A stretch of DNA of 35,570 nucleotides from Escherichia coli (GTDB lineage: Bacteria; Pseudomonadota; Gammaproteobacteria; Enterobacterales; Enterobacteriaceae), in assembly GCF_003334385.1 (NCBI RefSeq), contig NZ_QOWN01000045.1; one strand, given 5' to 3'. Shown here piece after piece: positions 3,001-6,000 of the stretch (position 1 is the first letter of the stretch; each line of letters starts with the position of its first letter). A program made the position numbers.

Positions 3001-6000
3001 AGCTTTCTCCTTTTTAGGTAGTTAAGTTGTTACGAGTTGCAAGAATACAACATTAACAACTTTTATCACAACTTTTAGGTGTTGGAAAGCTAAAACATAA
3101 AGTTGTAACCTCATCAAAAAAGAGAGGGATATGTTGTGAAAACACTGGCAGAACGATTAAAGATAGGTAGAGAGAAAGCTGGCATGAGCCAAGCTCAACT
3201 AGCTGAAAAAATTGGACTTTCACAACAATCTGTAGCCAAAATAGAGAATGGCGAAACTCTACAACCGCGCAAAATTAAAGAAATTGCAAAAGTTTTAGGT
3301 GTATCACAAAAGTGGTTACAACTTGGTATTGAAGACAACGCATCCATACCTGATCTTGTTGTAAAAGAAGCAGAAAGCACCGCATTAGACCCCGATATTT
3401 TCGTAAACATTCCTGTTTTAGATGTCGAGTTATCGGCAGGTAACGGATGTCTGGCTGAAATAGTTGAATCAGCTATTGACTGGTTTCCGTTAAGAAGAGC
3501 AGATTTGAGAAAATCTGGCGTATGTGCATCTAATGCCAAGATCGTAAAAATATGGGGGAACAGTTTATTACCGGTTCTCAATAATGGAGATCTTGTTGCC
3601 GTTGATATTTCTCAAACCGTTCCTATTCGTGATGGCGATCTTTATGCCGTACGAGATGGTGTATTGCTAAGGGTTAAAATACTTATCAACTTACCTGACG
3701 GTGGCTTGATTCTTAGAAGCTTCAACAAAGATGAGTACCCAGATGAAATACTCACCTTTGAAGATAGACGAGCCAGAATTCATGTTATAGGTAGGGTATT
3801 CTGGTCATCGCGAACTTGGTAATGCATCGAAAAGCATTTCTTCAGAAATAATTTTAAGTTTTGCACCATTATCATCCCTATAAGATATAGCCTTTTCGAT
3901 CTTCCTTCCGTGACTTGAGAATTTCCAATCACGGGAGGAAAGCGTCCCAATTACTAAAAAATCCAACTTTTGAGTAATTCCACTACTGATGTTCCCACCA
4001 GCATTTTTAATCAAATTTTCAACTACGGCTCTCTTTCCTGCAACAAAAGTGCCTGTAAGACAATAGGTTTTACCCTCTAACTCTATCGAAGCCCCTACAT
4101 CAATAGGCAGCCTGGTCGCCAAACCATCCACCACCCCACTTTCCAAGTCACATCCTGTGAAGTCTACTAATGCCTTATGTAGAGTTAAACTCTCATCTTC
4201 AGTAATAACACCATCTTTAAGAATTTCCTTTACAAGTGCATAAAGTTTTTTTCCTGGGTAGTTGTTCTTCAAAGCTCCATTTTGCTCAAGCCACCAATTA
4301 AGATATCTTATTTCTTCTTGAGTTAAGCTCCGATCAGCAATTAATCCTTTACATAGTCCATTAAGTAAATGGACATCTACATCCTTGGAGTAAAAATCAA
4401 TTTCAGGGATATCAAGAATTTCCCTCTGTATTTGGAGAAGGCTATTTTTAAGGTCATCACGTTCTTCTGATGTGATTATTCCATCCGCAAGAATATCCGA
4501 CACCCGTGCTGATAGACTTTTTATAACTCCATTATTGATAATCTGCTTTGCTTCAAGTAACCATGTATCTAAGTAAAGAACCTCCTCTTCACGGACAACT
4601 CCATCTGCAATGATTCCATCAATGATGCTAATCAAGTTAGCAAATAACTTGTCCCGGTTCTGTGTGTAATTAAAAGCGTAAAGCGCGTCTTCCATACAAC
4701 CTCCTTTTTTTGATAATCCTTGCACTCCTTGGCTACTCGTTCAAACCACATAAAGTTGTTGACAACATTCAAAACCACAACTAAATTACAACTTAAAGGT
4801 GTTAAAACAACGAACAGGCAGGACGCCCACGAAGTAGCCGCCGGTGGCGTATGAATGACCGGATGATTCGTTAAATACTATGTGTAAGAGAGCGTAAATG
4901 AACCGTTATTTCACATGCTCGTTTTGTGGCGCAAACGAGCTGCAGGCAAAAAAAATCATCGCCAAAGGCGGAAAAGATGAAGTTGCTATCTGCTCTGAGT
5001 GCGTAGTCTTGTGTGTCGGGGCATTAATCAATATCAGCACAACTATTCAGTTCACACCAAATGAGAATGCGCCTTTAGATGCGCGGAAATCTGGAGGTTA
5101 AAGAACAAAATGAAAGTCCAGATTTTAAACAATAGTGGTGAAGTCGTTTGGTCATACGACATAGCCGCTCCTGTAGATCAGAGCGGCGATAGCTGGACCA
5201 ATGGGAAACATCAGATTATGGCTGGAGTTGTGTTCTCTTTACGCCGTGCTTTAGAACAGGCTGAAGTATTTCCATCAGACCCTGAATGGAAATGGCCTTT
5301 TTCTATTTGTCCAAATTCGGAGAGCACATTTCAGAAAATTGGTCAGAAAGTCGCACTCGAAGAGCATCAGCCAACTGTTTCCTGATTTTTTCAGGTAACT
5401 CGTCGGCATCGCAGAAACAACAACGCTCGATCATGTTGAAAGCCGATGCGTAGAACTGTTTCTGCTGAGTGTCGCTGAGACAGGAAAAGAGCGACGTTAC
5501 GATGATTTTATTAATTGCATTATCAAGTTCTTTTTCATCAAAAGTCATTTGATTTTCCTTTTATGTATACTGGCTTAAAAGGATACCACCGAGCCTGAAG
5601 TGGTGAAAAGACAGGCACATAACAGCTAAGTATTTTCAACCAGAGAGAATCCTTAGCGTTGTGGTGAATGCGGCTCAGCGCACGCGGGTTAAGGTTGAGG
5701 CTGACAGTCGACCTTCTGTGGATACCCACCCGTCTGGTGTGCAACCTTCGCCAGGCACCGGGAGGCACCCGGCACCACAACTTTATGCTGTGTGTAGTCC
5801 TGGCGGTACCAGTTTGTACCCTTGCTTCCGGCTGGTACCGTCCTTTTTACAAAACAGAGAAGAGCATCACCGGACGACGGGCTCATAACCCAATCCATCC
5901 GGGCGGCTGCCACCGCAGGTGTTCTTCTCTGTTTTGTGGAGAAACTAATCGGCCTTGCAGGGTCGATATGATGAGGAGCAGCAAAATGGCTAGCGAACGC

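Follow-up and report, generated by a model that had tools for sequence, protein, structure and literature searches.

The stretch of DNA analysed here, referred to as the window, comprises the 35,570 nucleotides of Escherichia coli contig NZ_QOWN01000045.1 (assembly GCF_003334385.1) and is a lambdoid prophage whose gene content resembles that of CPS-53, e14 and SfV. This study concerns its immunity region, in which two intergenic control regions bracket the repressor gene and its neighbour. Reading from the left, the module consists of a cro-like gene transcribed leftwards, a first control region (3001-3135), a cI-like repressor gene transcribed rightwards, a BRCT-domain gene transcribed leftwards, a second control region (~4716-4802) and an early-left operon transcribed rightwards. 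We call the two control regions OR and OL, after the right and left operators that we propose them to be. The cro-like gene (2752-3000, minus strand) encodes 82 residues with a YdaS/Cro-type helix-turn-helix (HTH; Pfam YdaS_toxin PF15943, E 1.8e-14; phrog_35, transcriptional repressor); it diverges from cI and is co-conserved with it in all relatives. The cI-like gene (3136-3822, plus strand, GTG start) encodes 228 residues that match HTH_3 (E 2e-15) and Peptidase_S24 (E 1e-14) in Pfam, as well as phrog_4, and its product thus combines the N-terminal HTH and the C-terminal LexA-like S24 domain of a lambdoid repressor. Only 135 bp separate the two genes, so that the divergent repressor/cro pair with its short control region has the form of a lambdoid module. 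The BRCT gene (3805-4695, minus strand) is an open reading frame (ORF) of 296 residues, annotated in RefSeq as 'BRCT domain-containing protein' (Pfam BRCT, E 5e-5; phrog_3989, E 1.6e-128). To the right of OL, a promoter resembling the early left promoter (PL) reads into a gene for a ClpX-type zinc-ribbon protein (4898-5101).

Exact copies of the word AAGTTGT are found at 3024-3030, 3100-3106 and 4753-4759, and exact copies of ACAACTT at 3056-3062, 3068-3074 and 4788-4794, the first two of the latter being 12 bp apart. A preliminary description of this region had reported the same motif set at both of its ends, namely an AAGTTGT half-site and two ACAACTT direct repeats spaced by 11-12 bp. The words do recur in both regions far above chance, and the pair beginning at 3056 and 3068 is as described; however, the word 11 bp upstream of 4788-4794 (at 4777-4783) reads ACAACTA and not ACAACTT, the AAGTTGT at 3100-3106 had not been mentioned, and the unit itself had been parsed incorrectly. 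Comparison with relatives shows that what recurs is a 15-bp dyad, ACAACTT-N-AAGTTGT, and not a half-site accompanied by direct repeats. Each dyad combines one strong half and one weaker half, and the 'direct repeats' of each region correspond to one orphan half-site followed by the left half of a dyad. Four such dyads are candidate operators. OR-a (ACAACTTTTAGGTGT, 3068-3082) matches the pattern ACAMC-N5-GKTGT exactly, agrees with the ideal dyad at 12 of 14 positions and resembles OR2 in its placement, while OR-b (AAAACATAAAGTTGT, 3092-3106), with one mismatch to the pattern and 12/14 to the ideal, resembles OR3. On the other side, OL-a (ACCACATAAAGTTGT, 4745-4759; one mismatch, 12/14) lies between two back-to-back -35 hexamers, and OL-b (ACAACTTAAAGGTGT, 4788-4802; exact match, 13/14) is the best site of the window and lies over the predicted start of PL. 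The near-palindrome GTTGT-TG-ACAAC over a TTGACA hexamer, which had been placed within 3001-3135, does exist, although on the OL side (4755-4766, over TTGACA at 4759-4764). It was rejected as an operator, its right half falling in the PL spacer and being replaced in most relatives.

A chance likeness of two AT-rich intergenic regions might be invoked to explain the shared motif. In its favour, the 7-mer with one mismatch is not enriched across the window (118 occurrences against 99 ± 11 in shuffles), and a fifth strong dyad-like 15-mer (12/14) is found at 5777-5791. The first of these observations indicates that the signal resides in clustering and arrangement. Exact ACAACTT, counted on both strands, occurs 10 times in the 35.6-kb window against 4.31 ± 2.13 in shuffles, and six of these ten copies are packed into about 125 bp (3024-3106 and 4753-4794), for which the rate seen in shuffles of the window predicts about 0.02. 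The dyad ACAMC-N5-GKTGT with at most one mismatch yields eight matches, where 3.06 ± 1.56 are expected and where none of 100 shuffles reached eight. Both exact matches and two of the six one-mismatch matches belong to the control regions, and the OR and OL dyads represent four of the five best 15-mers of the whole window (at least 12 of 14 positions). The fifth 15-mer was discarded as an operator: it is located inside an STnc100-like element that is identical in SfV, a phage of a different immunity type, and is evidently unrelated, probably a coincidence. That element (5628-5850, plus strand) matches the Rfam model of the gammaproteobacterial small RNA STnc100 with 41.2 bits (E 1e-6), under the gathering score of 47. 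An unbiased listing of inverted repeats in the window alone singled out no particular spacing, and only the comparative data did so. As the position and the sequence of the sites are moreover invariant in 15 of 15 divergent relatives, the shuffles, the conservation and the fixed offsets already refute an origin by chance, whose probability we regard as negligible.

These comparative data derive from cI relatives gathered from three E. coli chromosomal types and 80 viral contigs, with cI 57-100% identical to that of the window. About 45 distinct relatives were compared over this range, the control regions up- and downstream of cI were inspected for every distinct relative, and 15 divergent representatives sharing the cro type were aligned; unless stated otherwise, conservation refers to these 15. 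The four dyads hold constant offsets in all of them, down to a cI identity of 57%: about -67 and -43 on the upstream side of cI, and about +925 and +968 on its downstream side. OR-a ranges only from -66 to -69 and OR-b from -42 to -45, their centres being 24 bp apart in the window. A relative carrying a deletion in the BRCT gene (L037) has its OL dyads at +184 and +227 after cI. In the four most distant relatives (cI 60-62% identical) OR-a, OL-a and OL-b are kept, and OR-b falls outside the one-mismatch pattern. The OR core (3046-3111) has 51 invariant columns out of 66 and a mean pairwise identity of 92.6%, and the OL blocks reach 94.9% (4739-4764) and 93.4%. The controls fall far below these values, with 41-46% at the third codon positions of cI and cro, 33% in the PL spacer, 32% at 3031-3041 and 42% in the spacer of the putative BRCT-gene promoter (4726-4738). 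The invariant blocks of OR are AAAGTTGT, TACAAC, ACAACTTTT, CACAACTTTTAGGTGTTGGAAAG and AAAACATAAAGTTGTA, those of OL are CAAACCACATAAAGTTGTTGACA and CACAACTAAATTACA(A/C)CTTAAAG(G/T)TGTT, and the sequence between the blocks drifts freely. The sites are conserved far beyond neutral positions.

The dyads are intimately associated with four promoters, two of which were supported by a promoter scan. PL (TTGACA-17-TAAATT, 4759-4787, plus strand; TTGACA at 4759-4764 and TAAATT at 4782-4787) was called with 10/12 in the window and again in relatives L001 and L004; its hexamers are conserved. The early right promoter (PR, minus strand) would have its -35 element TTGTGA at 3066-3071, in an invariant block overlapped by OR-a, and its -10 element TATTCT at 3042-3047, across an 18-bp spacer. 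The pattern T-A-x-x-x-T of this -10 is kept in all relatives and most of them read TATAAT; in L001 and L004 the scan picks out TTGTGA-18-TATAAT at the corresponding position, and the site of the window is below its threshold. It is also in the lineage of the window that the segment between AAAGTTGT and ACAAC (3031-3047) is unlike that of all other relatives. The promoter for repressor maintenance (PRM, plus strand) would consist of TTGGAA at 3082-3087, which shares T3082 with OR-a and whose surrounding GTGTTGGAAAG is invariant in relatives, and of TAACCT at 3106-3111 after an 18-bp spacer, replaced in relatives by TAATCT, TAGTCT or TAAAAT, with T-A-x-x-x-T always kept. That PRM was missed by the scan suggests a weak promoter. 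For the BRCT gene, a minus-strand promoter is predicted with the -35 element TTGAAC at 4744-4739 (TTGATT in most relatives), which belongs to a conserved TCAAAC block and abuts OL-a, and with an extended -10 element, TGC-AAGGAT (4716-4724; AAGGAT at 4721-4716), 17 bp away. ATCCTT and the CA that forms the TG of the minus strand are conserved in the 15 relatives with a variable n, and this promoter also escaped the scan. In each of the four -10 elements, the critical A2 and T6 are preserved among the relatives while the spacers drift. The transcripts are predicted to start near 3035 (PR, minus strand), 3118 (PRM), 4709 (BRCT gene, minus strand) and 4794 (PL).

It might accordingly be argued that the blocks were kept for reasons other than a repressor, either as promoter elements only or as mosaic recombination junctions, the ACAAC words being a by-product. 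All four predicted promoters do sit in conserved blocks, and OL is a module boundary to the right of which the genes differ between relatives. However, conservation reaches well past the -35 and -10 hexamers, and takes the form of one 15-bp dyad present four times, against an identity of about 33% in true promoter spacers. The sites furthermore track the cI/cro pair and a conserved recognition helix, and their half-site starts with ACAA, as homology to the 434 repressor predicts. We consider that promoter elements or junctions are very unlikely to account for the blocks, and retain the interpretation of the dyads as operators.

The N-terminal domain of cI is closest to the 434 repressor (1PER, E 4e-13), and its residues Ser29-Gln30-Gln31-Ser32 align with Thr27-Gln28-Gln29-Ser30 of 434, while 434 Gln33 and Glu32 are replaced by Lys35 and Ala34, respectively. 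In the 434 co-crystal structures, Gln28 and Gln29 read the ACA of the half-site ACAA; the Gln-Gln-Ser kept in the recognition helix of the window cI thus fits a half-site starting with ACAA. Relatives retain both the recognition helix, SQQS(V/I)AKIENG, and a motif of Cro, VKQQ(Q/H)(V/I)WNWL, in agreement with the unchanged operators. A cleavage site at Ala101-Gly102, together with Ser143 and Lys181, can be predicted from the protein sequence.

Besides the dyads, the control regions contain four orphan half-sites. Three of them are in OR: AAGTTGT at 3024-3030 (minus strand), exact, at about +5 to +12 of the predicted PR transcript and with a partner half scoring 2/7; ACAACAT at 3047-3053 (plus strand), with one mismatch, abutting the PR -10 (partner 3/7), whose ACAAC is invariant in the 15 relatives; and ACAACTT at 3056-3062 (plus strand), exact, in the PR spacer, invariant in relatives (partner 1/7). 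Around the first one, seven of the eight columns 3023-3030 are invariant, whereas the flanks are 32-46% identical. The fourth, ACAACTA at 4777-4783 (plus strand; one mismatch, partner 1/7), overlaps the PL -10 and includes a conserved CACAAC. In L083, L077, L079 and L082 (cI 60-62% identical) an extra everted palindrome, AAGTTGT-N4/5-ACAACTT, is present next to cro (for example AAAGTTGTTATTAACAACTTT in L077), with its half-sites oriented opposite to those of the 15-bp dyads.

The orphans raise the question of whether cI or Cro could instead read an array of ACAACTT half-sites, made up of direct repeats spaced by roughly one helical turn and a lone inverted copy, in the manner of the P2 C repressor, with the dyads being incidental. 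The upstream copies at 3056-3062 and 4777-4783 are indeed conserved without a dyad partner, a spacing of 12 or 11 bp recurs at OR and OL, and a report on P2 C describes a direct-repeat operator, indicating that phage repressors can read such repeats (PMC2995052). Nevertheless, the cI of the window combines a 434-type HTH with an S24 domain and is not of the P2 C type. The spacing, 12 bp in the OR of the window, shifts to 9 bp in L083 and L077 (62% identical) while the dyad stays, so that it is the dyads and not the spacing that are conserved, and OR-b and OL-a are equally conserved although they have no direct-repeat partner. Recognition with two-fold symmetry is favoured by two further observations. 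Among relatives whose cI is 57-81% identical, OL-b is flipped to ACACCTTAAAGTTGT, the half-sites being exchanged by clade (ACAAC..GGTGT versus ACACC..GTTGT), and in the 60-62% relatives OL-a is a perfect palindrome, ACAACATAAAGTTGT. A direct-repeat mode of recognition is in our opinion improbable, though less so than an explanation by promoters or junctions.

In light of these elements, we propose that 3001-3135 and ~4716-4802 correspond, with high probability, to OR and OL in the immunity module of a lambdoid prophage that operates a classical cI/Cro switch. The attribution of both regions to one repressor, already put forward in the preliminary description, is well supported by the recurring sites, their overlap with promoters, their near-invariance and the co-conserved recognition helix. 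In both regions dyads overlap an early promoter, PR or PL, as expected of lambdoid operators. OR-a extends over the PR -35 and borders the PRM -35; relative to PRM its centre falls at about -43/-44, where, in lambda, cI bound at OR2 activates PRM. OR-b occupies the PRM spacer and reaches the PRM -10. OL-a is situated between the -35 elements of PL and of the BRCT-gene promoter, at about -43 relative to each of their predicted starts, and a distance of 43 bp separates it from OL-b. We infer that the 15-bp dyads are read by dimers of cI through its 434-like domain, and presumably by the Cro-like protein as well. In the lysogen, cI on OR-a would occlude the PR -35, aided by the orphans around the -10 and the start, and would also activate the weak PRM, as lambda cI does from OR2. 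OR-b would shut PRM at high cI concentration or with Cro, similarly to OR3. At the other end, OL-b would repress PL by covering its start; OL-a may contribute to this repression through cooperativity, and in lysogens it may activate the BRCT gene. The four orphan half-sites, which flank or overlap the -10 elements of PR and PL, are probably auxiliary contacts. RecA-stimulated self-cleavage at Ala101-Gly102 would then lift repression.

Several points weigh against this proposal. Each control region contains only two full dyads and none covers the PR -10, whereas lambda, 434 and P22 all have a dyad there; a third OR dyad over the PR -10 was sought and not found, the partner halves of the orphans scoring only 1-3/7. 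The four invariant orphans are unexplained by a simple model of dimers on dyads, and it is a possibility that they reflect an unusual higher-order assembly of cI and not the classical three-operator design. The PR -10 is degraded to TATTCT in the lineage of the window, where PR may consequently be weaker than with TATAAT. PRM and the BRCT-gene promoter were deduced from conservation patterns and lie below the threshold of the scan. The 'activating' geometry of OL-a towards the strong PL is the same as that of OR-a towards PRM, which is awkward for a site of pure repression. Finally, the OL-b flip is perhaps a single evolutionary event and may hence be weak as covariation.

Comparison with characterised phages places the switch itself among known kinds. 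As in 434, the cro and cI genes are divergent, the same sites recur at OR and OL, and the repressor has a self-cleaving S24 C-terminal domain; in addition, the N-terminal domain finds in the 434 repressor its closest solved structure, the half-site starts with ACAA and the operator centre is A/T-rich. The 434 operators follow ACAA-N6-TTGT, whereas the site described here is 15 bp long (ACAA-N7-TTGT), one bp longer, with C at position 5. There are two full dyads per region plus orphans here against three and three in 434, the Cro of the window belongs to the YdaS family and not to the 434 Cro type, and the immunity specificity differs overall. The differences in operator length and site number indicate that this is not imm434. 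With respect to lambda, the arrangement of OR2 and PRM, in which a dyad touches a weak -35 with its centre near -43, is encountered twice, for OR-a with PRM and for OL-a with the BRCT-gene promoter; positive control was seen in lambda, and here the likeness is one of geometry only. Lambda has no second promoter of this sort at OL, and its rexAB genes are co-transcribed with cI from PRM, whereas the accessory gene of the window lies on the strand opposite to cI and appears to have a promoter of its own. A precedent for the site itself is found in 933W, whose repressor binds sites of 15 bp with symmetry around a central base pair. The natural sites of 933W number only five, fewer than six as here, and the N-terminal domain of its repressor was modelled on 434; it differs in that recognition involves Ser41 and Lys42 and in that three OR sites are still present (PMC3317979). 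The present system is modestly unusual in having two dyads on each side, in its orphan half-sites and in the presence at OL of a second promoter of PRM-like geometry.

A search of a collection of 50,697 phage records returned no cI more than 45% identical to that of the window, the best phage matches being Stx1-converting phages at about 41%, and no near match to the DNA of the immunity region. Among 5,426 complete E. coli genomes, 72 carry the immunity type, and many uncultured viral contigs carry it too. It has no characterised phage representative. Further along the prophage are an integrase gene (8787-9950) and, just upstream of it, an HTH excisionase-like ORF, both of which we take to be P22-like.

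The gene enclosed between cI and OL deserves particular attention. It had been described as a TerB-BRCT gene inside the repressor-controlled interval. It does lie physically between cI and OL, and the BRCT part of the label holds; however, no TerB match was found in Pfam or NCBIfam, the latter returning nothing above cut-offs, and PADLOC gave only a weak match to PDC-S48 (2.7e-7). The N-terminal two-thirds of the protein (residues ~20-190) show four repeats of the type (I/L)(I/L)(A/K)DG(V/I)(V/I)xxEE, read from the sequence, for which no Pfam or NCBIfam family was matched. Being on the strand opposite to cI and divergent from PL, the gene would belong to neither the PRM nor the PL transcript, and it appears to have its own promoter. 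The 3' ends of cI (plus strand) and of the BRCT gene (minus strand) share 18 bp (3805-3822), an overlap that implies convergent transcripts; no convincing terminator was found between the two genes, and transcriptional interference or antisense pairing is possible.

In nearly all relatives OL is located 963-971 bp after cI, with the BRCT gene in between. The exception is a type in which OL follows cI by only 226 bp and in which both ends of the gene are retained, which points to an internal deletion. This type, represented by L001 3880-4010 (E. coli K-15KW01) and about 25 E. coli genomes with cI 94% identical, keeps the first codons of the BRCT gene, its last ~25 codons and the whole of OL. 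The loss of the interior of the gene in these relatives indicates that it is dispensable for maintenance of the prophage.

As the BRCT-gene promoter abuts OL-a, control of this gene by cI, possibly activation, is plausible. A parallel can be drawn with Vibrio phage K139, whose orf2 product is homologous to the BRCT protein, with 33% identity across 95% of the length, and is encoded directly beside the repressor gene, in an annotated lysogenic operon cI-orf2-glo-int. K139 is a P2-like phage in which orf2 is co-directional and co-transcribed with cI, unlike the gene of the window; its place in a lysogenic operon is nonetheless consistent with expression of the BRCT gene in lysogens. A search of the literature on BRCT/TerB in prophages and on K139 orf2 returned nothing useful. 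More tentatively, it can be speculated that the OL-a dyad, from its position between back-to-back -35 elements, silences PL while activating the BRCT gene in the manner of PRM, a dual role that we regard as possible but doubtful. Were this the case, cro, cI and the BRCT gene would make up a conserved cassette of three genes, whose repressor would directly turn on a gene specific to lysogens, possibly serving in defence or in the sensing of DNA damage.

Just downstream of PL, at 4810-4871 (plus strand), we observed an unannotated, conserved structured element of about 62 nt, which comprises an outer stem, CGAAC.../...GATTCG, and a hairpin, CC-NNN-[GGCRYAYGAAKN]-N'N'N'-GG. At three pairs of the hairpin, comparison of 12 copies reveals 4-6 compensatory double changes per pair. 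Of the 5,426 E. coli genomes, approximately 1,400 contain the element, as do 53 phage records, among them ST64B, SfV, SfII, SfIV, mEp460, mEp237, ZF40 and T5-like Providencia phages. Folding of the single sequence was not significant (z = 0.32), no Rfam match was obtained even at E <= 10, and no similarity to the put region of HK022 was detected. It may serve lambdoid prophages without N as a cis-acting leader RNA, for example in antitermination.

The general picture of lambdoid regulation is unchanged by these results. For the immunity type described here, the layout of operators and promoters has been defined from the DNA sequence alone, as a result of which homo-immune prophages become predictable. 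The location of the BRCT gene under a promoter that the repressor could control provides a concrete hypothesis for the expression of an accessory gene in lysogens.

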